A DNA stretch of 55,981 nt, filler included, from Dugesia japonica (Eukaryota): assembly GCA_001938525.1 (NCBI GenBank). It is 4 parts of 4 records of this genome, joined end to end, with 100 filler letters (N's around TTAATTAATTAA, not from the genome) between each part and the next. Parts side by side here need not be neighbours in the genome. Positions count along the whole stretch, not along the records: positions 23,580 to 44,734 come from MQRL01644968.1; 3 more parts are not named here. One strand, 5' to 3'. Made by a program: the position numbers and the translations under genes. Every line of letters begins with the position of its first letter. Position 1 is the first letter of the stretch. Shown here piece by piece: positions 13,190 through 54,719 of the stretch. Under the pieces are notes generated by a model, which saw only the letters and a list, made by a program, of their open reading frames with translations, had not been told where the DNA came from and made no database searches.

Positions 13190-14990
13190 TTTAGGTTCTT
13201 GTTTGTTTAATTCTTAATTCTTTGAAATTAACAAGTTTTCCCTAATAGTTTATCAAGTCTTAGATGCCATTGATTACACTTTAAACATTTATACTTGTTA
13301 CCATGTGGCCAAGTTTTTATTCCATTATCTTCAATTAATCTTTTGTCGTCGTAACCAGTTAAAGTTATTTTCTTTTGTTCAGCTAATTCTATTTCATTTT
13401 TTCGATTTTAATGAATAATTAGTTCCATATATTTTTTCTTTAGGGTTACTTAAAACTTTATCATATTCTTCCATTCCTATTTTATTAGTTTTAGAAACAT
13501 CTTTATGTTTAGTTTCAATATTTTTATTGTCGCTAATTATATAACTTTTAGCTTTTATAAAATTACATTTAATTATTTCATTATTTAGTTTTTCATCTTT
13601 CATCTCAAATAAATTATTTCCTAATAAACTTGTTAATTTATTTAAATTTTCTTGTCCTTTTATTTCTACAAAAATTGAATCTGTATCTGAATAATGGATT
13701 TTATACTTTCCTGGTATTTATTTATGCATCTGATTATAAATAAAATCAAATATAACTTCTTTTGCATATTCTAAAATAGTAAATCCTATGTATGGGAATT
13801 TATTATATTTTAATTTAGTTTTGTAAAGATGAACTGCTGCTGTTTTGGCTTTGCGAACGCCGCGACTGAAAGAAGCTTCTGAAGGATTTTTCCTGTAAAT
13901 ATTTTACTTGATTTAAAACTAATTTTACTTGTAAATTTTTGATAATCTTTATCATTATCTACAATTTCAATATTACATCTATTTCTAACATTTCTAATGT
14001 TTTTCCATAAAAAGCATTATTTAATAATTTAAAGAATACATCCCCAAAAACATCGTTATTTCTTTTAGTTTCGTTTCTTTGATTGATATTTTATGATATT
14101 TGTTGGCATTTTATATTTTGAATGTATTTTTTTTATTTTCATTCCTAAAGAAAGATACAAATCTAATGTTGATCCTAAAATAATATAATTTTGTTTATCA
14201 AATTGATTCAATGTTAATTTAGTATTTTTCTTGAATAACTTTTTATTAAAGCTTAATTGATATGGTGCCAACATTTCTTTTGTAATATTTAAAGGATATG
14301 GTGCTAATGGAAAGTATTTAGTTTTTTCATGAATTGCTTTTGGATATTCTAAATCAACTTCATAAACATAATTAATATCTTTAGTTGATTTAGTATATTC
14401 TAAATCCTTACATTCATAGATTTCACCAGTTGGTGAAGGTTTTGTCATACAACTTGCATACAAAGAATTCTCGTCTAGATATTTTAAAAATGTTTCTTCT
14501 TTCAAATTTGTCGGTGGAGCTCTATTTTTAATTAATGAAAATAATATATCTCCAACTTGTGCTTTGTTTAATTGTCTAGTTTTATTAAATCTATTATTTG
14601 ATTTTTGATTTCTTTCACCACAAACACCAGAATAACCACCTCTAACTCCCCTTTCATTTTTAATAAATCTATCATAAGTTTTTTTTGTGCATATTTTAAT
14701 TTTACTTGAGTAAATTTCATACCTGCATTCCAAGTTAATCCTGGAGCTGAATAACAATAACTTGGATNNATTTGATAATTATTTAAACATGTTTCTCTAA
14801 AATTTTCAAAGTAATCAGCTAAAATAATTACATCTAGTTTCATGTAATGTAACATATAATCCCATAAATTATAAAAGTTACTAAAATCATTTAAAAATTC
14901 ATTATATTCTTGATCAGTTATTTGTTTTTGTTTTAATATATTATCAAAATCTTGTTTCGATGGAAAATAACCTTCAAATTACCTTTTGGA
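13190..14990 (-). pseudogene. pPolB: Protein-primed family B DNA polymerase (Polinton/Maverick/adintovirus type), fragmented
   Basis: Motifs appear in the correct order: YMKLDVIILADYFENFRETC, SAPGLTW, RGVRGGYS, YLDENSLYASCM, YEVDLEYP, FPLAP, FKLLNNAFYGK (~14002-14035), YIGFTILEYAK, HYSDTDS (~13677-13697), KAKSY, YDDKR, TWPHG. Confidence 0.92.
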
Positions 14991-17477: not shown

Positions 17478-18008
17478 AATATACTCAAATTCTGTCACCT
17501 TATTATTAGACAAACCTTTGGAATTCCAAAATTATTAGAATTTAATTGGTTAATTTTTTTTAAAAAATCAAAGTAAACGATTTTGCATAACTTTACTTGA
17601 AAATTAACATTTTTAAAAGAACATTTAAAAAAAACAATTAAAATGAAAATTTTAAAAACATTTCAAAAGAAATTAAAAAATACGACGAATCTTAAAATGA
17701 TTGATGACTTTTAAGTCGTATTTAATAGTATTCAATGAAATATCGATCAGAAAATAATAAAAAAAAATGAATTCTGTTAATTTTATTCGAATTTATAAGT
17801 TTTTAAAAATTATTTAATAATAAAAAGTCATTTTTAACTGTTTACTATGAGTTTATTAATTAATTACATTGTTTAAAAAATATCATTATTTAACCATTAC
17901 ATTTTGGCCATTTTAAATTCAAATATTTATAATTTATTGAATTAATAGCAAAGATTTATAAATTTTCATAACTTTCTTAATAATACTCTTAAAAAGTTTT
18001 TTCATAAT

Positions 18009-19613
18009 ATGCAACAAGGATATCAAATTACCAAAGGAGTTAATACTCCAGGTGGAAAAATTGTTAAAATTGTCCAAGTTGCTAATTCAGGAAATAATTA
18101 TGTTGCTACATTTCAAGGATTTAATACTATCCCAATTCGCTCTAATAATTCTAGTGTCAGTAGTGATGTTTTGGGAACACTTTTGTCTCAACATCCTTTA
18201 GGATACATTACTAATCAAACAAGCCAACCAAGTAGCTTATTGTCATCAAATTTACCGGAAGGTATGAATATTAGTCAACAATCCAATACAAATATGTCAA
18301 ATAACGGTCAAAATAGTAATTCAAGTCAACACAGTTCAAGAAAACCGTGCAACTGTACAAAATCTCATTGTCTTAAATTATATTGTGAATGCTTTGCAAA
18401 TGGACAACTTTGTGATATGTGCAATTGTAATAATTGCATGAATAATTTAAATTTTGAAGATGAGAGAGCAAGGGCCATTAAAATGACATTAGATAGGAAT
18501 CCTACGGCATTTCATCCAAAAATAGGTATTTCCTTGTAATTTTTCTAGAATTTTTTTCTAGAATTTGCCTGTAGGGCGGGGTGAAGGTGAGCGCAAGCAT
18601 ACCAAGGGATGCAATTGTAAACGTTCGGGTTGCCTGAAAAATTATTGTGAATGTTATGAAGTAAATAATTGTTTGTAATATGAATAATAATAATTATCTA
18701 GGCAAAAATTAGCTGTACTGAGAGTTGCAGGTGCCAAGGCTGCAAAAATACTGAAGATAGTATTGAGAGACGTTCTTTAAAAAGACTTATTGCTATGTCT
18801 TCTCTAAAATCTAATCAACCTAATGCTATTACCAAGAGTCTAATAAAGCCACCTCACGAAAGGTACTTTTATAATCTTACAGTTTGAAAGTATTATAATT
18901 AGGTTACCTCACTCATTTTTAACATGGGAAGTTATCGAAGCAATGACAAATTGCTTGTTATCCAAAGCAGAAGAATTTGAAAGATCAGAACTTACTATTG
19001 AACAACAAGAACGCAAATTAATCGACATATATGGTACTTGCTTAAATAAAATTATTGAGACTTCAAGAACAGTATTAAAATTATACATAATTATTAATTT
19101 ATGTTTATTATCCAGGCCCTTTTTAACAATAATGTTAATCAATATTCTAATATTATCGTGGATAATTACCTAATGAATCCAAACATACCAGGAGATTTAC
19201 TTAGATCGTTAGACAATGATAGTGCACGAAGGGATAGAAATCAAGAAAATCGAAGTGATTTGGTTGATGACGAAGAAGGGGATGATGAATTGGATGTTGA
19301 TTTAGAAGATGCAATGGTGATGAATGATGATGATGACGATGATGATGACGGTGATTCAGAAATAGTCTATACAAGACGACAGCCTCATATATCTGGTTAG
19401 TTAATATAACTTGTTATTGATTAAAATAAATGTTTTTAAGAAACTTATACTTCACGTACTGGTAGAAGACGTGGTCGTCCATCAGATAATGCAGATCCCG
19501 CCTGGCGACCTGGTAAAACTAAACATAATCGTCAAAACCAGTACTATATGTCATCAACAAGTAGATCAAGAAGTAGAAGAAGTTACGAGAACGATGATAT
19601 GTTAAATGTATAA
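18009..19613 (+). CDS. lin54: LIN54/tesmin-family CRC-domain protein (MuvB/DREAM subunit); exons 18009-18525, 18575-18660, 18702-18862, 18903-19071, 19116-19395, 19441-19613
   Basis: Two CXC domains ([22 protein letters not shown]; [23 protein letters not shown]) joined by the [11 protein letters not shown] hinge, plus the C-terminal [20 protein letters not shown] motif. Five in-phase GT-AG introns of 40-49 nt. Confidence 0.96.
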
Positions 19614-19814: not shown

Positions 19815-20927
19815 TCAAATGTTGGAAATTATTTCTGTGTTTGAGCTGATGGGAATTTGTTCTGTTGAGTTATATGGATTAATTTTGTAATTACATAATT
19901 TCCAATCTGTCGTAGGATAGTTCCATATTAGTTTACCGAAATCATTTAAAAATCCGCTTTCCAAGTTAATTTTATTTAAATGTGTGATTATATTCGTGAT
20001 ATTATTGTAGTTATTTTCACCCTTTAATTCCTCTTGGTGCGAATTAGGTTCTTGAGGAATTGAATTTGCAAGTGCCAATAAAGTGTCTTTATCAAAACTA
20101 TTTATAGATTCAAATCGGTCTTCTCCAGTTTTAGCTAATGTTAATAAATGCTTAATTTCGTATTTTGATGGATTTAAACTTTTGGAAATAAATTGAAGCA
20201 TATCTAACAAGCCTAAATAACGACCTTTATAAACATCGAATATGCATTCAACTAAATAGTATTCGTTTCTATAAAAACAAGCGACATTTTCACTTAACTG
20301 CAATTTGCAGAAGCAATAATATTCAATCTTTTCTAAAAATGTTTCGTCGTCTTTTCTGGTAAACTGTTTAATATATGTGTTTGGATGGATTGGAATCATG
20401 AAACAATGATAATGGACACCATATTTATTTGAAGAATATCCATTTATTTTTAACCAGCGATCTAACCAAGGATTTTGTCTTATATCAAATGTTAAGGCTT
20501 CTAAATAAACTAGTGCTTTCGCAATTGGATTAAGTATATCAATATCAGCATACGGTTCTTTAGTTAATTCTTCTAAACAATCAAAAATATTCATTAAGGT
20601 TGAGATGAAAGTAGAGCGAAAAAAATAGTTTACTGTCATATAAATTTCTCCAAGTTTTACAATGAACGTAAATCGTTTTTCTAAACAATCTCTTATTAAG
20701 GGAGTGACTCTATGAGCGATTAATTCCAAGTCACTTGTTAAATACATGGCGCTTAGTGCTATTATCTTTATTATTTCAGAATCTGTAAAGTTGAACTCTT
20801 TTAAACCTTCAATAACATTTCGAAAAGCAGTATTATTTAACAAACCTACATTTATGAACCACAGTTTTCCATTATCTGATTCCATATAATCTTTTTCACA
20901 AAATTCAATTTTGATTTCATTATCCAT
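19815..20927 (-). CDS. Intronless 370 aa protein of unknown function
   Basis: 1.1 kb uninterrupted ORF in very AT-rich DNA, with a globular-looking composition. Convergent with lin54, with ~200 bp between the stop codons. Confidence 0.8.
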   Translation of the reverse strand: MDNEIKIEFCEKDYMESDNGKLWFINVGLLNNTAFRNVIEGLKEFNFTDSEIIKIIALSAMYLTSDLELIAHRVTPLIRDCLEKRFTFIVKLGEIYMTVNYFFRSTFISTLMNIFDCLEELTKEPYADIDILNPIAKALVYLEALTFDIRQNPWLDRWLKINGYSSNKYGVHYHCFMIPIHPNTYIKQFTRKDDETFLEKIEYYCFCKLQLSENVACFYRNEYYLVECIFDVYKGRYLGLLDMLQFISKSLNPSKYEIKHLLTLAKTGEDRFESINSFDKDTLLALANSIPQEPNSHQEELKGENNYNNITNIITHLNKINLESGFLNDFGKLIWNYPTTDWKLCNYKINPYNSTEQIPISSNTEIISNI

Positions 20928-21972
20928 CTTAAAAATTAATAAAATAAATTCCTTAATAGATTATTTGTTGATGGCAATACAATATTATGACAAAGTTTTT
21001 TTAATTTTGAATACATTTATATTTCATTGATTTGCCACACAAGTAAATACATATTTGCTTAAAACAGGCGTTAAACTGTGGAAAACTTAACAAAATATTC
21101 CTTTTCCGAAAAATTAAATGTGCCTACTATTTTTTTTAAATAAATTTGACAAAAGGATCATCTTATATGTTATCCAACACTAACTACAGCCCAGAAAAGT
21201 TTAAGATCAGAGTGGTATTAAATGATTAAATAAAGAATTTATAATTAATTACTTCAGAAAACTAACAAACAAATTATATTAAAAATTTTGATAGAAAATA
21301 CTCCATACTTAACATACTTGGTGCAACAAAACATAGCAATTAAGACATTTATAACTTAAATGATCTAGCTTAAATAACAAGATATGAATGACACAGAGGT
21401 AGAAAAATAATTAGTACAAAATAAATTAGAAAAACGGGTAATAATCATTTAGTGAAAATTCAACAGCAGAAATTATATGGGGAAATAAATCTATAAAAAT
21501 AATATAATAAACCCTATGTAAATTCAAGTCAAAATTCAATCGTGGTTACTTGGTTCTTTCCATGATCAAATAATCTAGACATCAGAACAACATCTAGAAA
21601 AATGAATAGTGAGACTGTCAATTGGAAGAACATCTGTATTAAAACAAATTTCTAATCGGAATAAATACGTAATGTTAAATCAATCGGCAGATCCAAGTTG
21701 TGCAAGTTCAAGAGAGGAAAAGGAGTAATCACCAAATTAGCAGAAAGGACAAAGGGAAAATATGAATCGAGAAGTAATGAATCAACAAGAATTAAGTCAG
21801 TAAGCGCGTAATAAAAATAAAACGGGACAAGAGTCATAATGCAAGAATACAGAACTAGAAAATGAAATATTTCAATACAGATATATGGTAAGGCTAAAAA
21901 GCCCTTAGACTATAACAGAAATAATGAAGTCAACTCAACAAAATTTAAACTAACCATAAATGTACATGCAGA

Positions 21973-22990
21973 GGTCTTATTTCTCGACATAACCCCCGCT
22001 TACATTGACGCACTTTTTTCCAGCGGTCGACCATTCAATTGAAGTCTCTTTCAAAGAAATTTTGATCCTTATTCATGAAGAATTTCGCCATGCTGTTATT
22101 CATATCATCCTTGAAAACAAACTTATGTCCCCGCATTTGTTTCTTCAGATTATTGGAACAACCAGAAATCCAAGATCTGGACTGCAATGAGAATAATCCA
22201 GCTTTTGTGTTTTCTTGGATATGTGAACAGGAGCATTATCATGGAGCAAATAATGATCCTGGCTGCGTGGCTTGAATCAGATGCTTCGGGTTTCAAGTAT
22301 GAGATTACTGCAGTAATCTGATTTTTTGATTTCTTTAGTAAAATTTGGCTTTACGATGACATTTCTATCCCAAAAGACAATCAACATGACACATTTACGA
22401 TGTGAAATTCTTAGACGCAAGACCTTGGTTGGCTTCTCATTTTCAAAAATCCATTTCTTTGACTCTCTTTTAGTGTCTCGTCTGAAGTTATTATATTAGA
22501 CAAAAACTTGGTCCGACTGCATTCAGAAAACAAAGATTCCTTCTACAGGTCATTTTTCGTCTTGCCATCATCTCTGATATTAAAAATTTTGGCTCGAACC
22601 TGCTACAAAACTTTCGGATTCCCATTTACTTTAGAAGCTGCTGAACATTTCTCTTTCAGGCATTCAGCCTCTCAGATAGCTGCATTTAAGTAATTTTTCG
22701 TTATTTGTCGCAATATTTTTCAATGCTTTAGTAATTTCTTCACTAATTTCGACCGATCTTTCACCTATGGTTACATAAAAAAATTTTATTCAACATGATG
22801 AAAATTCTAGGATCCAGTTATAAATGGTCGCCTTAAATGGGGCTTCTTCACCAGACACCTCTTAAAGCTGATCAGTAATTTCCTTCTTGCTAGTTTCCTT
22901 GATAAGTAAAATCGGATCACAATGCAAAATTCAACATTATTGAATATTTTTTTTGAATTATTCTGTTAGGTCTCGTGGGTAAGATCTAAC
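21973..22990 (-). mobile_element. Decayed mariner element
   Basis: Minus strand HDNAPVH (~22223-22243), VFWDRNVIV, WATI*; the 3' end resembles ..WSTAGKK..NVSGGYVEK*. Confidence 0.7.
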
Positions 22991-23846
22991 AATAATTTAA
23001 ATATGCTAATACCTCCAAATTATATACCTAAAACGCGTGCAGGTAATTTTAATGTAAATGAAAAATATTGTTAGATTTGTAAGTCAGACTTACATTAATA
23101 ATATATTTAGTTTTATATTTTGTATAATTAGATTTAGTTAATTATTTTAGTTTGTTTTAATTTGTTGGGTTGCTAGGCTTTTTGATGTGGTTTGCATTTA
23201 TATTGATCTTCATTATCACTCTCGATCTCCACTGTTTCTTCTTTCAAATATCTTTTCTGTCTGGGGGATGATACCCAGCAACCACAGAAATTTATGTTAC
23301 TCCATCTAGTAACACGATCCTCCTTTTCCCCTGGATTCAGCGGGACTATGCTGTATCCCGTCTTAGATATGCAATTTCTATTTATTTTTTATTTTTATTT
23401 TTTATTTAATGTTTATTGTTGCTATTAACAATAAACCTTTCAATCCAACAATTTATAAAGAAACTTTATTTTAGATACANNNNNNNNNNNNNNNNNNNNN
23501 NNNNNNNNNNNNNNNNNNNNNNNTTAATTAATTAANNNNNNNNNNNNNNNNNNNNNNNNNNNNNNNNNNNNNNNNNNNNGATGGTTCCTTACAGTATTTC
23601 CAATTTGTCTTCATCCAAAAATCAATTCCCGACGAATGCAAATTCAACATATCAAAAATAAAAAATAATTTGACCAAAGCTTTTATTTTAATGAATTGTG
23701 AAAAACGATCAATGGTTAAGTCCAACAATTATTCTCGTCAAATCAACAATACAAATCATAAAACAATTTATTGATAAAACACAATTACTATAACTTTCAC
23801 ATAAAAACACAAAATCCTCCTTAAATATTAAAACCAAATAAACAGT

Positions 23847-36880: not shown

Positions 36881-37697
36881 CTATAACTAACACTTTGTGT
36901 ATTCAAACTAATTGAAATTCCCGTGTTTTAATTAATGATCACCATTTTAAATTAATTAAAGATTATTTTAAGTAATTTAAAAATTTTACTTCATTATTTA
37001 ATCGTCATCTTAAAATATAAAACCAAATCTTTCTTTAGTGAAAATGGCAACCAACACTGAGCTGTATCAAATTTATTGCACCTTCACCAAACATTGCGTA
37101 AATATTGCGAGCAGTTTGAACACTTTTATTCTGTTGATTAAACGAGATCAGAAAGATTTGTTGATGGTGCTCACTTTTATCTTCTTGACATTTAGAAGAC
37201 TTGTAATTAAAATAATGGATGTTTAAATGACTTATAATCTTTATCAACCTGTTCTTTCCATTATTATTAATTATATTGATTATAACAATTTGAATATAAT
37301 AATATAATTTGCATACAATTTTAAGTTACAAAAACGAAAATAACTTATACTAACACCTGATATAAGTTCAAGATATCAGTAATCTTAATTAATCACTTAC
37401 CATACCAGTAACAAGCCAGGATCATCAAAATCAAACCAAAGGGAGGCAAGATTGAACACATTGAGGGTCACTCGCACTCTTTCGAATATCGAAAACTAGG
37501 ACCCTGTTTTACAATTGCAATTATTGCTAGAATAATTGTTTGACATAACGATTGATCGTTTTTCAGAATTCATTTTAAATAAAAGCTTCGATCAAAATGT
37601 TTGTTTTTTTGTTTTTTATAATAATTTTGATAACAATTTTCGATAACAACAAAGAAAATTACTACTATAAGAATAAATATTGAATAAATTAGAAAGT

Positions 37698-37734
37698 CAA
37701 TTCCTGAAGAAGACAAAATCGAAATATCGAATTG
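37698..37734 (+). ncRNA. Minimal type I hammerhead ribozyme, copy 2
   Basis: caattc-CTGAAGA-agacaaaatc-GAAA-TATC-gaattg: perfect 6 bp stem I, one mismatch in stem II. Confidence 0.7.
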
Positions 37735-39499
37735 TTATCAAAAACCAAGAAAAAAACAAAAATTTTCATAGAAGCTTTTATTTTAAATGAAACTATGACC
37801 CTATCAAACTCTTACGGATATCAAAGTGTAACAATACAACGGTGAGTCATAATTGATGAAGAGAGTCAGGAAGACAACAATTATTTTTTTATTACTTTCA
37901 ACCTTAACAATTTTAATTCTAAATTAAATGAACAATATGAATCAAAAAGATTATGAAACACTGGCCTAAACCAATACTTGCAAATTTTCAGAACGATGCC
38001 TTGATGTCGACTGATTTTATTTTAGTAACCATAAAATATTTGTATGAATTAATCTTTAGCAATAAAATAAAATTGTTAGTTGATGTGATGGTCTATTGTC
38101 CACCCAATCATGTCTTACCTATGTTATTTTAATTACAATTCTAAGTAATTATAGTTTTTTATAATAAGCTATAATATATTAACAAAAAGAAAAATTTATA
38201 AAATTTCACGTTAAATTCTGGAATACCACAATAAATTATCATTATATATGGACGTCATAAGTAATGTTAAACTTTTATTCTTAACATAATTAAGTAATAA
38301 ATATTTTTCCGACAAGCTTTGTGAATACTTACAATATAATAAACAAATTGAATACTGAATGAAATTTAAAATTAGTTCACACTGTACTTTGTGGTCATAA
38401 ACAATGGGAAATTTTTCTTTTTAATTAAAAATACACTGAAACATTAAATTAACTTATTCTGAAATTATATAAAATGATGAAAACAATCGTTCTTACATTA
38501 CTAAATTCGTAAAATAAAAATTTAGTTTTTGAATTTTGAATTTTAATAAAATTATATTTATAATTAAAAGTAAAAATAATGAAAATAAAATTTAATATTA
38601 GCATTGATTGAGTTCAAATTAAAAGCACAATAAATTACTTTCACATAATTTAAATAACTTAAAAGTTTTATTTTACTTTTCAATTATAAAAAATAATAGT
38701 TTATTAAAAACTAATTGACAACGTGATCTATACTAAAAATTATAAATATTAATATTTAGCATTTTATTTAGTTGTTTAATTGCATCAAAAACGGAAATTC
38801 ACATCAGTAAATTACTGAAATCTTTTTTGAGAAATATTGATTGAAAATTTAATTGAAATTTTTTAATTAGTTGAAAAGTTAAAAATCAGACCAGTTATGA
38901 CGGAAAACTTAAGTTTAAAAGAAATATCTGATAATTATTGGAAATTAGCAGAATCAATTTTGGGGTATTATTTGCATTTTTTATTGTCAAAACAATTTCA
39001 ATGAATTATTTAGAATAAAGAAAATATTTTTATAATTTTTAAACTTTTTAAAACTTAATTTAATAAAACATTTAATTTAAATAATATAATTATAAAATTT
39101 ATAATTTTCTCACCATGATGATAGAATTTAATTAGATCTATCTCCCGATTTATACGGTACTTTATTAACACGATTTCACTTTTACACGGTTTTTAAAATG
39201 AGATTTAAAAAAACATGAAAATTTAGATAACAGTCTGTTTAGAATGATCTTACTTTATAAATTATACTCTTAATGCAAAAGCGTTTTTAATTTTTACTTC
39301 AAGTTATAGGTTTTAACTTTTAAAGTAATTACAAAAAGGGTGGTTACAGTGAGATTGCATCCACTATTTATACTAGTGGCTATCTAATGTTCATGCGTAT
39401 GAAACCGAATCAAAAACCACGGTTTTTAGTTTTCCAAAACCGAAAACTGAGGTTTTGAAAAAGTGCGGATTTCTAGAAACCCTAATAAAAACATAAACT

Positions 39500-40050
39500 T
39501 GTTGACAAGAGATCTTCGTCTACTGATTTCAAGATTGAATGTCTTTCTATTACAATATCATTAATTTTTTAATTGTAGTAAACTCAGAATTTTTCTTAAA
39601 TACTTTTAAAAACTTAGAGAGATATAGAGAATAGAGAGATTTACAAATAGATTCTTGTAATGATCTGAGTGCATTATTTACCATGGTAATATCATGGATG
39701 GCATTAATAAAATGTTCTCTTTTTTTCAATATGTTTTAGTTTTTGANNNNNNNNNAAAATTTGCGTTAATACAGGCAACATCATCCACTTTACTAATGTC
39801 CTTTAACCATTTTTGTGCCATTCTTGGGCAGACAAATTCTTTAATGTTCAATCTTTCCATAATATTAAGTGTTTCTAAATTTTCACAATAATAAATTACC
39901 ACATTCAAACTTTTTTCTCATAGTGTAATTATCGGTTGTGAAGGCAGGAATAAATTTGGTGCAGGAACTCTGATACATTCCAATCAAGAAGGTGCCTTTA
40001 ATACATCTTTTTGACACTAGTATTCAATAATAGAATTATTTATTAATTCA
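39500..40050 (-). mobile_element. Possible decayed hAT transposase fragment beside a hAT-like terminus (ending ~39484)
   Basis: aaaaccg-rich subterminal repeats ending in ctagaaacccta; minus-strand broken ORFs. Confidence 0.35.
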
Positions 40051-43716: not shown

Positions 43717-46204
43717 CTTGGTATTTACGATAATCACATATTATTTATTCTCGAATATATCGCGATGTTATCTAAAATTACAGTATTTTCACGATATACA
43801 GCAAATATATTTTTGGTTCGTGCTTCATTCTTTCTTTTTTGAAAATAAATAGCATCAAAAACCAAAAATATTGGTTGTTTTGCTTCATATTTTCAATTTC
43901 GTTAAATAAAAACTACTGATTATTATTCAAAAAATAGCAATAAAAAATAAGCTGGAAACATAATCTCATAATAACTTTACAGTGAGATATTTTATAAAGA
44001 TTATATACTATTTTACGTTAAAAAAATTTGACTGAGAAACACAAAATTACTTTTTAATTAGCTGAATAAAATAAAACAAAGCAACAAATAGTTACAATTT
44101 TTATTTCAAAACCGCTTCAAATCTTATATATGTTGGGGTTTAAGAGGTTAACTGATATTTGCTTTAATTCTTATGGGTATTCTCAAATCCCTTTCAAAAC
44201 TTTATTTTCGAAAAAAACCTAGTAATTCTCATTTGCAATAGAAGAAATAAACACTGCCCTATAATTTATTTCCATATTCTTAAGCAACAAAATCTCGATG
44301 TCATTTCGTCAGTAATTATTTTAATTAACATTTACCAAGACATCATTAGAATTAACTGCAGTTAGTGAAGTCTTCTGACTTTATTCCCTGCTTCCATGAC
44401 CTTCTCATTAGTAAATTGCTATTGTAGAGTTCTTTATAATAGGCCACTAATAAAGTCCTATTTTTGGACTAGAACACCAAAATTTATGTTTTATAAAAGC
44501 GGCAGTGGGATACTTACGGATAAAACAGGAGGTAAAAGATCAAACTTTCAGAAATGAACTTTCAACGAAATTTAAAGGAAAAAATTATACAGTTATTATG
44601 GGCGAGAAAAGAAGGGAACTGAATAAATGAAATTTTCTCACAAGTATACGATTATAAAGCTGTTGGGGTGAAACACTGGACTAAGAAAAAAAATTGTGTA
44701 AGTAGACACGGAATTCGAAAGATCTACATAAGAANNNNNNNNNNNNNNNNNNNNNNNNNNNNNNNNNNNNNNNNNNNNTTAATTAATTAANNNNNNNNNN
44801 NNNNNNNNNNNNNNNNNNNNNNNNNNNNNNNNNNATATATATATATATATATATGCATATATTGAAATTATTGGATACTTTTCAAAAACATTTCTTTTAC
44901 TGTGAAACTGTTGGGAGCATCTTACATGTACAGACAAGAAAACACTTTGTTTATTTTTTTATCTCTTACACTAGACTTTAAAACTGTAATTTCAAAATTA
45001 GAAAAATTGTTCATTGCTATTCTTCAGAGTTAAAAATATGATTATTTGGAAATAAACATATTTTTTAAAATTGTGAATAATCAATAAAAACCCTTTACAC
45101 AATTTATTGATTAATTATTGAATTTTCGATTTTTAAAAAAAAACTAATTTTTCGAAATTGGCGATTCGTGTTTCTATGTAACATTTTGAATTTTTGGTTT
45201 TATAGTGAAGATTTTCATTTTTATTGTAAAAATAATAATAATAATAATATTGATTCGAAATTTTAGAAGGACAAAACTTGGTTTTAAGAACTGTTCTAAT
45301 ATTTTTAATTTTTAACTTCATATATCCTCTCTGTGTGAGACTTATTTACGTGTTTGTTGTTTGTGCTGTGTTGTTGAAAGTAAAGATGGTGCAATAGATT
45401 CAGTTTTTTGACAATGTGTTGTGCTGATACTTATTGATTTTGTTGTTTTTATTGTTTTTAATTTGACCTGCTTGGTTTTAATTTTTTTGTTGTAGGCAGC
45501 TTTATTGCGTAAAATATTTATGTATTTGAAATCGATAGATGATCAGTTTTAACGGACTGATTTTATTTTATTTATTGTAAATAGGCCGCACTGCTTCTTT
45601 GATTGTATTTTTATACAACTACAGCATTGGTGTGCATATTAAAATTATTAATATTGTTATTAGTATAATGATAAACAGAAGATATATTAAGCAATATAAA
45701 TTGTATAAACATTGTTAGAACACTTTCGACTTTTCTTGTAAATAAAATATTTGAATACATTTACTTTGTATGATTTGAAATATATGTTCAATAACTTTAT
45801 TTAGTTTTGAAGAAATAAATTTATAAATCTTTATTATTATTGGTTATTATTAATAATTTAATGAATTGAAAAAATACAAATTCTATTGTAAAATTGTTTA
45901 TTTAAAAACAATTGAATATATTAGTAAGCATTAATGCTGATTAGTAATTTAGTAGCATATTACGTTTTACTAGCACAACGACGTGAAATTTGTGTATTTT
46001 AGAATAGTAAAAAAATTTCATTTTAAGTTGCATAAAAATATTTAGTTTCCATTGACGTTTAAATTAATCATGACCGTTCGATCTACTAAATCTTATCCTC
46101 TAAAAAAATATTATTTTAATTTTTTATGATAATCGCAAAAGGAGTTGCATATCTTAGTTGATAAGTTTTTCCTGATTAATTGATCCTGGTTTGATTTATC
46201 GTAT

Positions 46205-49378: not shown

Positions 49379-50636
49379 ACTAGGTTGAGTCAACTGTTTC
49401 CGGACACTTTTTATTTTGTCTATTTTAATTTTAAAAAAGCAGCGTTATTTTAAAAAAATTGTATTATCTACTATTATATAATAAGCCAATTATTTTAGAT
49501 TTTATTTCAAAAAAATAATTATCATAGAAGCTCACAAAATGGCGGACGAAAAAATCATAAGTCGCGGTATCCTGCGTCATTATTGGAAACAGGGTCTAAG
49601 TGTAAGAGCAACAGCCATGAAAATATGTGAAATTGAAGGTCCTGGGATAGTCTCAGAAGCCACTCTAGGAGAATGGTTTCGTAGATTAAATGAAAGCGAT
49701 GCCAGTCTGGAAGACAAATCACGTTCTGGAAGGCAATTGGTCCTGATAAATAAAGCTTTATTGCAAGGTATTCTACGAAGGCCAGACACCAGCACTCGCA
49801 TCCTGGCTACTCAACTTGGGACGTCTTTATAAACCATTGTTGTACACCTTCACGAACTTGGTTTTGCAAATAAGAAACCCATATTTGTTTGCCATGAACT
49901 TTCTGATCAACAAAGGAGTAAAGAAATTTGCAAGAAATTGTTGGATAATCCTAAAAATGCAAGTTCTGGAGACGAATCATAACTTGCGATGAAAAGTGGA
50001 TATATCTCAGAAATTCTATTATCAAAGGCAATGGCTTCAGCCAGATCAGAAGGCATCATCGGTAGCTAAAAAAAGAAGGTTCGAACACAAGAAGATGTTA
50101 TCTATATGGTGGAATTTTGAGGGTCTTGTATTATGAGAGCTAATTCCAGAAGGCCAAGCTCTGTATGGAAACCTGTATGCCGAACAATTAGAACGACTTT
50201 ATGATGTTCTGGCCACTCGTTATCCAGCTTTAATCAATAGAAAACGGGTATTTCTGCAGCATGATAATGCTACAACCCATAACTCTAAAGTGGTAAAGTA
50301 TAAATTAGAAGAGCTTGATGGAATCGAACTATTACCTCATCCAGTTTATACCTTAGACTTAACTCCATCAGATTATCACTTATTTCGGTCAATGAGTCAT
50401 TTTCTGATTGGCAAGAAATTTAATTCAGTAGCAGATGTCAAAAGTGGAGTCCTTGAGCTTTTGCAGACCAAGCCCCCAGATTGGTATCAGAAAGGAAGCC
50501 AAAATTTGCTGATAGATGGTTGAAGACCTTATCTAGCGAAGGAATTTATTTTGATTAATAAAACTTTGATGTTTAATGACTTTTTTCTACATATTTTTAA
50601 TTTAAAGTGTCCGGGAACTTTTGACTCAATTTTGTA
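49379..50636 (+). mobile_element. Full-length mariner (DD34D) element; transposase pseudogene 49539-50558
   Basis: TIRs ttgagtcaactgtttccggacacttt / aaagtgtccgggaacttttgactcaa. Motifs RSGR, ITCDEKW, QHDNA, HPVYTLDLTPSDYHLF, with stops and frameshifts. Confidence 0.93.
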
Positions 50637-53735: not shown

Positions 53736-54719
53736 ATGAACGGAGGTTTGAAGGTTTCTAGATCAGATAGTATTAATTATAATTCACTTAAAAGAAAATC
53801 TTCATGCCTATATACGAACTCTAAATCGAAAATTCCAAAAGAAAATGAATTTGAAGTAGTAAATTCATTTGAATCACACATAAATATGAATAAAATTAAC
53901 GAGAGTTATGTAAGTGAAAGTATGACAACTTCTGATTCTCCATTTGCAGAATCCTTGAATTCTAATTTGTGCGCTACAGATGATGTATTAGCATTCGAAT
54001 ATGTTGCTCCAATTGATCTTCCAAAAAAATATGAATACAAAGTTACCGAAATTTATCAAATAGGGTTTCAAGTAGGTGATACTGATAGGATATATCTACC
54101 AAATGTACTGGATTTTCAAGATGTTTCTTATCAATATCAGTCAAACATACAATTAAATGAAAACACAGTAAATCAAATATGGAATGATATGACTCCCATG
54201 ATATTAAGCGCAGATTATCAAGTGGAATATAAAGGGATACAGCAACAAGGCATGCAGCATTTAGAGGATTATCTTGCAACTAATTTGGAAACTATTATTA
54301 CTAAATCTAGAGTACAAGAGAAGCAATCAATGATGTCTTCCTATAAAAGAATTATTGAATTACGACGTAATATGTTTCGCATGATTTCAAAATTATTTTC
54401 TGAATTAAAGTTTTCCTCTAAATTTGATCCGTTAACTCAAGATATTGACAGATTAATTGATCACTTTATTATTTTATTATCATGTTGCCTGACATCAAAT
54501 CGTGATGACTATATCAAATTGATTCAACAAATTCCAGATCGCGATTCACTAGATCCTGTTGTCGTTCTGTACAAAGATTTAAATATGTATCATAAAGAAT
54601 TACAGCTTAAATGTCTCAGATTAATTAAATTATTTATGCCGAAATTGGAATTACCTTCTGAATTCAGTGTCAGTACTGATTTAAATCATTTAATTCAAAG
54701 AATTTGTTCGGTTAATTAA
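53736..54719 (+). CDS. Intronless 327 aa protein of unknown function (Ser-rich N-terminus, helical C-terminus)
   Basis: 984 bp uninterrupted ORF that stands out from extremely AT-rich flanks. Confidence 0.8.
   Translation: MNGGLKVSRSDSINYNSLKRKSSCLYTNSKSKIPKENEFEVVNSFESHINMNKINESYVSESMTTSDSPFAESLNSNLCATDDVLAFEYVAPIDLPKKYEYKVTEIYQIGFQVGDTDRIYLPNVLDFQDVSYQYQSNIQLNENTVNQIWNDMTPMILSADYQVEYKGIQQQGMQHLEDYLATNLETIITKSRVQEKQSMMSSYKRIIELRRNMFRMISKLFSELKFSSKFDPLTQDIDRLIDHFIILLSCCLTSNRDDYIKLIQQIPDRDSLDPVVVLYKDLNMYHKELQLKCLRLIKLFMPKLELPSEFSVSTDLNHLIQRICSVN

Follow-up and report, generated by a model that had tools for sequence, protein, structure and literature searches.

A short head-to-head repeat with a minimal hammerhead motif in Dugesia japonica is probably an insertion scar of a Penelope-like retrotransposon

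The window, that is the whole stretch of 55,981 nucleotides of Dugesia japonica DNA that was analyzed, is AT-rich with a GC content of 14–38% in 2-kb bins. It is interrupted by three identical filler blocks (11700–11799, 23480–23579, and 44735–44834), each consisting of 44 N, a 12-base stop-rich word and a further 44 N. These are artificial contig joins and therefore the sequence past 23480 is possibly not the true flank of the third repeat copy described below. A lin-54/tesmin CXC-domain exon is located at 17949–18536 (+), and a gene for an SLC3A2/rBAT-like amino-acid transporter heavy chain with the Pfam domains SLC3A2_N and alpha-amylase spans 24414–29801 (−). Between exons of the latter lies a long AAT-rich tandem array (about 25840–28030). 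All of the 14 top-scoring named matches to the lin-54 frame come from flatworms (E 2e-36 to 5e-34, the next named match having 5e-31), which speaks against a nematode host as suggested by the intron style.

Fragments of Tc1/mariner-type transposases (Pfam HTH_48, DDE_3, Transposase_1, HTH_23) are present at 37038–37325 (−) as well as 49485–49829 and 50137–50520 (+), with further ones at 22280–22495 (−), 4681–4977 (−), and 9275–9532 (−). The last of these is flanked by 114-nt inverted arms (8544–8657 and 9623–9736), and another lies about 170 bp from the repeat copy at 37506–37789. Two uninterrupted frames, 19815–20927 (−, 370 aa) and 53736–54719 (+, 327 aa), have no Pfam match. A 230-aa frame at 14065–14757 (−) resembles, judged by eye, a fragment of a protein-primed family B DNA polymerase of the Polinton/Maverick type; Pfam and PDB searches with this frame returned no match.

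The repeat copy at 37506–37789 is referred to as copy 2, and its relatives within the window as copies 1 and 3 (Table 1). Its two halves form an imperfect inverted repeat, in which 37569–37626 is aligned by BLAST with 37791–37730 at 83.9% identity over 62 columns (E 4e-13). None of 2000 Markov-resampled pairs attained its local score of 93 (maximum 81), which confirms the inverted repeat proposed in a first-pass annotation of this DNA. Folding of the whole element yields −57.4 kcal/mol (z −4.57), with 0 of 200 shuffles being equally stable, and a putative transcript of the locus could form dsRNA. The bounds of the element had been placed at 37511–37791; the target-site duplications (TSDs) now set them at 37506–37789, with positions 37790–37791 being common to the continuation of the element and to the TSD.

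Table 1. Coordinates of the features of the three repeat copies, counted along the window.
Copy	Feature	Position	Strand	Description
2	Left TSD	37493..37505	.	13 bp, 12/13 identical to right TSD
2	Tail	37506..37568	-	63 nt; 3' extension on inverted copy only; common to all three copies
2	Inverted 5'-truncated copy (arm)	37569..37638	-	homologous to 37730-37791
2	12-nt tandem units, three, at arm 5' end	37613..37649	-	match first ~12-14 nt past predicted cut; private to copy-2 arm
2	AT-rich spacer	37650..37692	+	no match elsewhere in window
2	Minimal type-I hammerhead	37698..37734	+	predicted cut after C37728; features compared with those described in PMC4209133
2	Hammerhead stem I	37698-37703/37729-37734	+	6 bp
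2	Hammerhead core	37704-37710	+	
2	Bulged A, extra base following A9	A37711	+	
2	Hammerhead stem II	37712-37720	+	2 bp (3 bp in copy 1), G10.1-C11.1
2	GAAA	37721-37724	+	
2	Self-complementary helix III segment	37724-37727	+	4-mer
2	Remainder of direct pLTR copy	37735..37789	+	ends at proximal (tail-less) 3' end
2	Right TSD	37790..37802	.	one mismatch vs left TSD
1	Left TSD	30229..30237	.	9/9 identical to right TSD
1	Inverted part	30238..30313	-	60-nt tail 30238-30297 + 16-nt arm 30298-30313
1	Direct part	30314..30399	+	hammerhead core intact (30320-30352), stem I of 4 bp, stem II of 3 bp, predicted cut after C30348
1	Later 410-bp insertion with terminal inverted repeats	30400..30809	.	flanked by TAA (30397-30399, 30810-30812); splits copy-1 3' end
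1	Rest of copy-1 3' end past later insertion	30810..30818	+	
1	Right TSD	30819..30827	.	9 bp, perfect
3	Inverted part	23617..23765	+ (ribozyme sense)	decayed hammerhead, arm 23617-23695, tail 23696 to ~23765
3	Direct part	23595..23615	-	hammerhead fragment from G5, 19/21 identical to copy 1; assembly gap at 23579

In copy 2, the clean match between the arm and the direct part stops at 37638/37730 (13/13). The first-pass annotation had followed the arm back to a TATCG word. The arm does end within about 4 nt of the predicted cut, but its distal part, 37639–37649, scores better as a repeat of 37732–37744 (12/13) than as a read-through to TATCG (7/7). TRF describes 37613–37649 as a 12-nt array of 3.0 copies, and owing to these units the exact end of the arm is ambiguous, being either 37730 or 37725. 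The word TATC is present twice, 11 nt apart, at 37725 and 37736. The 43-nt spacer that follows may belong to the pLTR, as its portion ahead of the ribozyme, or may have been filled in at the junction.

Immediately left of the copy-2 TSD, the 12 nt at 37482–37493 nearly repeat the hammerhead segment spanning the cut, with one base less. This stretch is otherwise matched only by the two ribozymes in the window, in a pattern that was picked post hoc, and it may be an older remnant that was used as target, or chance within a palindrome.

The hammerhead motif of the first-pass annotation and its cut position were recovered by a generic type-I descriptor, which matches exactly two sites in the window, 30324 and 37704, both in copies of this family. 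Under the null, the mean is 0.087 sites per window and two or more sites occurred in 2 of 300 resampled windows. Copies 1 and 2 share the traits of the minimal hammerheads of Penelope-like elements (PLEs), namely the extra base after A9, the G10.1-C11.1 pair and a palindromic 15.2–16.2, and the motif is decayed in both segments of copy 3. Rfam has no match of any family above its gathering score in the window, and around copies 1 and 2 it shows no hammerhead even at E ≤ 10. Its miRNA/snoRNA-type matches around copies 2 and 1 are weak (E 0.68–8.3) and were dismissed as chance. In copy 1, a reading frame is open for 24 codons from an AUG in the hammerhead core; this frame is broken in copy 2.

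The active hammerhead fold lies 2.5–4.1 kcal/mol above the free minimum, even when the arm is left out. In the predicted fold-back, the pairing probability of bases 37725–37735 is 0.8–1.0 with the arm and about 0 with stem I. The arm would thus occupy both the cut site and the stem-I 3' strand, and the fold-back would silence its own ribozyme. A weak monomer is predicted, and cleavage would probably occur only as a dimer or with the help of a protein, since Rfam is silent, stem II has only 2–3 bp and the active fold is not the minimum.

The segment upstream of the arm is common to copies 1 and 2 (30234–30313 vs. 37505–37584, 86% by BLAST). The first-pass annotation had reported that copy 1 shares the upstream 60 bp and the start of the inverted arm; the shared upstream segment holds, and of the arm copy 1 carries only 16 nt. 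Read in the sense of the ribozyme, these 60 bp are the continuation of the 3' end of the element, before which the direct copy stops. They correspond to the tail of a PLE on the opposite strand and not to a leader. The length of this tail is 60, 63 and about 70 nt in copies 1, 2, and 3, respectively, and it is found on the inverted copy only. An 8-bp hairpin was considered as a conserved stem-loop of the tail and rejected; it is formed in copies 1 and 2 and absent in copy 3, the z values are −1.1, −0.9, and 0.0, and 0 of 8 consensus pairs covary.

Both outer ends are 3' ends of the element, and between copies 1 and 2 their positions differ by no more than about 3 nt. TSDs of unrelated sequence sit at the homology boundaries in both testable copies (12/13 bp in copy 2 and 9/9 bp in copy 1), copy 3 being cut by the assembly gap. 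The duplication of copy 1 became visible only once the later 410-bp insertion had been recognized. Random flank pairs scored as well in 33 and 41 of 1500 cases (2–3% each), which corresponds to a joint chance of about 6 in 10,000 if the two are independent, with boundaries that were chosen after inspection. The terminal inverted repeats of the 410-bp element itself are imperfect, it is flanked by a duplicated TAA, and its termini presumably resemble those of PIF/Harbinger-type MITEs; its terminal motif has no second copy in the window.

The third copy (23765->23581) had been overlooked in the first-pass annotation, which listed two copies. Its hammerhead parts are supported by resampling, since the score of the part in the arm was reached by 2 of 2000 nulls and that of the direct fragment by 0 of 2000. 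A profile search of the window returned six segments below E 0.1, all of which belong to the three copies. In copy 1, the tail is confined to the inverted part and the ribozyme to the direct part. Each half therefore holds sequence that is missing from the other, and neither can be a simple fold-back or snap-back copy. The forward parts start at the equivalent of about 37693 in copy 1 and at G5 in copy 3, and the 43-nt spacer of copy 2 has no counterpart.

The forward part of copy 1 (30314) and the arm of copy 3 (23618) have an equivalent start, about 5 nt ahead of stem I (equivalent to 37693) and just past an AG in the copy-2 spacer. This position may be a natural 5' end of the RNA or a splice acceptor, the acceptor context being weak. 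For Penelope, an intron end has been mapped to helix I according to the available text of a hammerhead survey (PMC4209133).

A central claim of the first-pass annotation was that the ribozyme cut sets the end of the inverted arm. Relative to the predicted cut, the arms end at +48 in copy 1, at about −4 to +2 in copy 2 and at −36 in copy 3, which is 37776, 37725–37730, and 37693 in copy-2 numbering. Their lengths are 16, about 70–80 and about 79 nt, respectively, and the arm of copy 3 passes the whole hammerhead. With ends uniform over the observed range, the chance that one of three arms lies no more than 5 nt from the cut is about 0.34, in a sample that is limited to three copies, one of them cut by a gap. 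Furthermore, in copies 1 and 2 the forward part continues across the cut and derives from intact RNA. The claim is thus contradicted by the scatter of the arm ends, the very outcome that the annotation had itself named as speaking against it, here in a small sample. Its more general proposal, that the element carries a hammerhead, arose by reverse transcription and has an inverted pLTR, is supported.

No coding parent was detected in the window. None of 131 frames of at least 60 aa showed an RT or GIY-YIG remnant in Pfam (131 of 136 such frames across the window, five with N being omitted and two trimmed to their N-free parts), nor did any of 115 shorter frames around the copies (21500–25500 and 29900–39500). 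A 54-aa frame of copy 3 yielded six candidate homologs, none at E ≤ 10, and no Atlas match. A 33-position profile built from six fragments of the window had 0 matches among 1.84 billion proteins. The DNA of the element has no relatives in bacterial or archaeal genomes or in GenBank phages, as expected for an animal repeat, and the window holds no full-length copy. Since an RT/GIY-YIG ORF is without a match, membership in the PLEs rests on the non-coding anatomy; the missing ORF is what would be expected of truncated copies that contain only the pLTR.

Here, four non-coding features of PLEs are found. An adjacent inverted 5'-truncated copy of variable length lies at the 5' end in all three copies. 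The tail is carried by one copy only and, together with the tail-less end, defines two fixed 3' ends in copies 1 and 2; it is also present in copy 3. The TSDs vary in length (13 and 9 bp), and the pLTR of copies 1 and 2 contains a minimal type-I hammerhead with the three traits given above. The general layout of PLEs has been described as combining a direct pLTR and an adjacent inverted copy, truncated at its 5' end, with a tail and a TSD (PMC8557442, in the part available), and for Penelope of Drosophila a repeat length that depends on the copy has been reported (PMC2377424, likewise in part). Against this assignment stand the tail, which at 60–63 nt exceeds the published 30–40 bp, the short stem II of 2–3 bp, the silence of Rfam, the position of the active fold above the free minimum and the negative search for RT or GIY-YIG remnants.

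Taken together, 37506–37789 is probably an old, decayed and very short, pLTR-only, double-ended insertion of an endonuclease-bearing Penelope-like retrotransposon. Its layout is already known for PLEs, and copy 2 on this reading is an ordinary PLE insertion scar. It would contain the 3' end of the element, that is pLTR and minimal hammerhead, twice, each time truncated at the 5' side and with the two copies arranged head to head. We infer the parent element and its two-ended priming, as well as any ribozyme activity. An RT/GIY-YIG protein would nick both strands of AT-rich DNA 9–13 nt apart, which would give rise to the TSD, and each 3'-OH would then prime reverse transcription, one at a proximal start about 61–64 nt past the ribozyme cut, the other at a distal start that lies some 60 nt farther towards the 3' end. 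One of the copies being primed at the distal start, the tail would appear on the inverted copy only. Both cDNAs would stop at variable points and would subsequently be joined head to head. The hammerhead would be a part of the parental pLTR and would not fix the end of the arm; the inverted repeat is probably a by-product of each insertion, made anew and not inherited as a unit. Such a process is in line with the protein of an anole PLE, which is reported to cut and extend both strands and to initiate reverse transcription at two internal positions, by which the tail is defined (PMC11167929, available sections).

The same head-to-head arrangement might arise from a PLE-derived insertion by self-priming or a template switch on an antisense transcript. 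This is the published account of head-to-head PLE repeats in the portion of PMC3846280 at hand, and at the present resolution the end product would be the same. The model builds on palindromes at the junctions, yet by inspection 0 of 3 junctions are palindromic and that of copy 2 has a 43-nt spacer. Both 3' ends adjoin the TSDs, as two target-primed events would predict, and we regard the antisense route as rather unlikely. A further reading keeps the ribozyme at the center, in that the arm would be the cDNA of the 3' cleavage product and arms would stop at the cut. For copy 2, as a minority among the insertions of the family, the RT would have reached the 5'-OH at G37729, realigned and copied the last 12 nt or so twice more, leaving the triplication 37613–37649. 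This agrees with the end of the clean match, A37730 being the second nucleotide of the 3' product, and with three 12-nt units that equal the first 12–14 nt of this product and are absent from all other segments. It is opposed by the two of three arms that end elsewhere, by the forward parts that cross the cut and by the chance of such a match given above. Furthermore, cleavage was dispensable in vitro and no RNA-seq reads ended at the cut, as stated in the available text of PMC11167929. Since ordinary slippage between the TATC words 11 nt apart explains the triplication equally well, re-copying from a cleaved end is considered improbable.

The first-pass annotation had also suggested that the fold-back is what propagates. 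On this reading, tail, arm and hammerhead would form a non-autonomous retrozyme- or SINE-like unit that is transcribed and copied whole. The order of the parts and the tail are indeed alike in all three copies, three short copies within 56 kb and without a nearby ORF suggest an abundant non-coding family, and a 2026 preprint, in the part available, derives animal retrozymes from PLE pLTRs (10.64898/2026.07.22.740005). However, junction and arm length vary from copy to copy, and the best match of the copy-2 arm is the forward part of the same copy (48/54, 4 gap columns), ahead of the forward part of copy 1 (43/51) and the arm of copy 3 (34/43, 12 gap columns). The head-to-tail repeats with two same-strand hammerheads that define the retrozyme layout (PMC7229834, as far as available) are absent from the loci, and the fold-back would bury its own cut site, as predicted above. 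Propagation as a unit is not supported, given the differing junctions and arms, and we consider this explanation highly improbable. The DNA transposon alternative, a MITE with internal inverted repeats and a hammerhead-like motif by chance, is hardly conceivable. In its favor, the copies are short and non-coding with an inverted repeat, the window is rich in mariner-type fragments, and Rfam is silent. Here, in contrast, the inverted repeat is not terminal, being offset by the 60-nt tail, and its length varies between 16 and about 80 nt. At 9 and 13 bp, the TSDs are unrelated in sequence and not of fixed length, and the descriptor matches fall in this family only, two sites being rare among the resampled windows. 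DNA-transposon TSDs together with a ribozyme core that is not conserved had been named beforehand as evidence against the hammerhead reading; neither is observed, because the TSDs are of the retrotransposon type and the core is conserved.

The reading as a double-ended PLE insertion helps to annotate a repeat family that escapes both Rfam and Pfam. This family represents a test bed for the role of PLE hammerheads in vivo and for the origin of head-to-head pLTRs. Short TSD-bounded double-ended insertions, with three copies per 56 kb, would offer many junctions at which both questions can be tested from genome sequences. If the improbable re-copying in copy 2 were true, the genome would hold the footprint of two events amid two-ended target priming, namely cleavage in vivo by the minimal hammerhead of a PLE and the addition of repeats in the manner of telomerase by the RT of a retrotransposon. 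A literature search, which covered titles and the beginnings of abstracts, found no report of such a combined footprint.

Among known systems, the animal non-LTR retrozymes resemble the present family in being small, non-coding and AT-rich with a type I hammerhead (PMC7229834, available part). According to the same text, they consist of head-to-tail repeats of 150–450 bp with canonical hammerheads and circular RNA, whereas the copies described here are single, head-to-head, of the minimal type and bounded by TSDs. Head-to-tail tandem units with a same-strand hammerhead occur at 0 of 3 loci, and instead of a canonical type-I hammerhead with a helix II of about 4 bp, helix II has 2–3 bp.

The metazoan PLE minimal hammerheads, as far as the available text of PMC4209133 describes them, are closer. 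They share the type I fold, the extra base after A9, the G10.1-C11.1 pair, a 2-nt palindromic insert in helix III and a helix I of 4–6 bp. In the same source, pairs of minimal hammerheads on opposite strands, 100–700 bp apart, are described for truncated PLEs of Schistosoma, comparable to the opposite-strand pair in copy 3, and a PLE hammerhead is listed for Schmidtea. A difference is seen in helix II, which here has 2–3 bp and a 3-nt loop in comparison to 4–7 bp in 12 rows of Fig. S3 of that paper, and the sequence match to the Schmidtea hammerhead is limited to the core.

With PAc (Poseidon of Anolis carolinensis), the family has in common two fixed 3' ends past the hammerhead that define the tail, as well as AT-rich targets. 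The start codon of PAc lies in or next to the ribozyme (PMC11167929, in the sections available), and copy 1 has an AUG in the core with a putative 24-codon frame. The proximal end lies about 85 nt past the AUG here and 111–118 nt past it in PAc, and the putative frame has no database relative.

In the available text of PMC3846280, Pen2a_Av of Adineta vaga is described with a second pLTR that is shorter and inverted, a tail of 31 bp and a TSD of 9 bp. For Pen2/Pen2a_Av, solo-pLTR derivatives and a pLTR that includes the start of the ORF are reported, and relatives of Pen2-type elements are placed in Schistosoma and Schmidtea. In contrast to Pen2a_Av, the copies described here have no ORF body, a tail of 60–63 nt vs. 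31 bp, no palindrome at the junction and, in one case, a TSD of 13 bp. The likeness to Pen2/Pen2a_Av lies in the direct pLTR and the shorter inverted pLTR placed head to head, the one-sided tail and the TSDs around the whole insert, which measure 8–10 bp in those elements (PMC3846280, same part).
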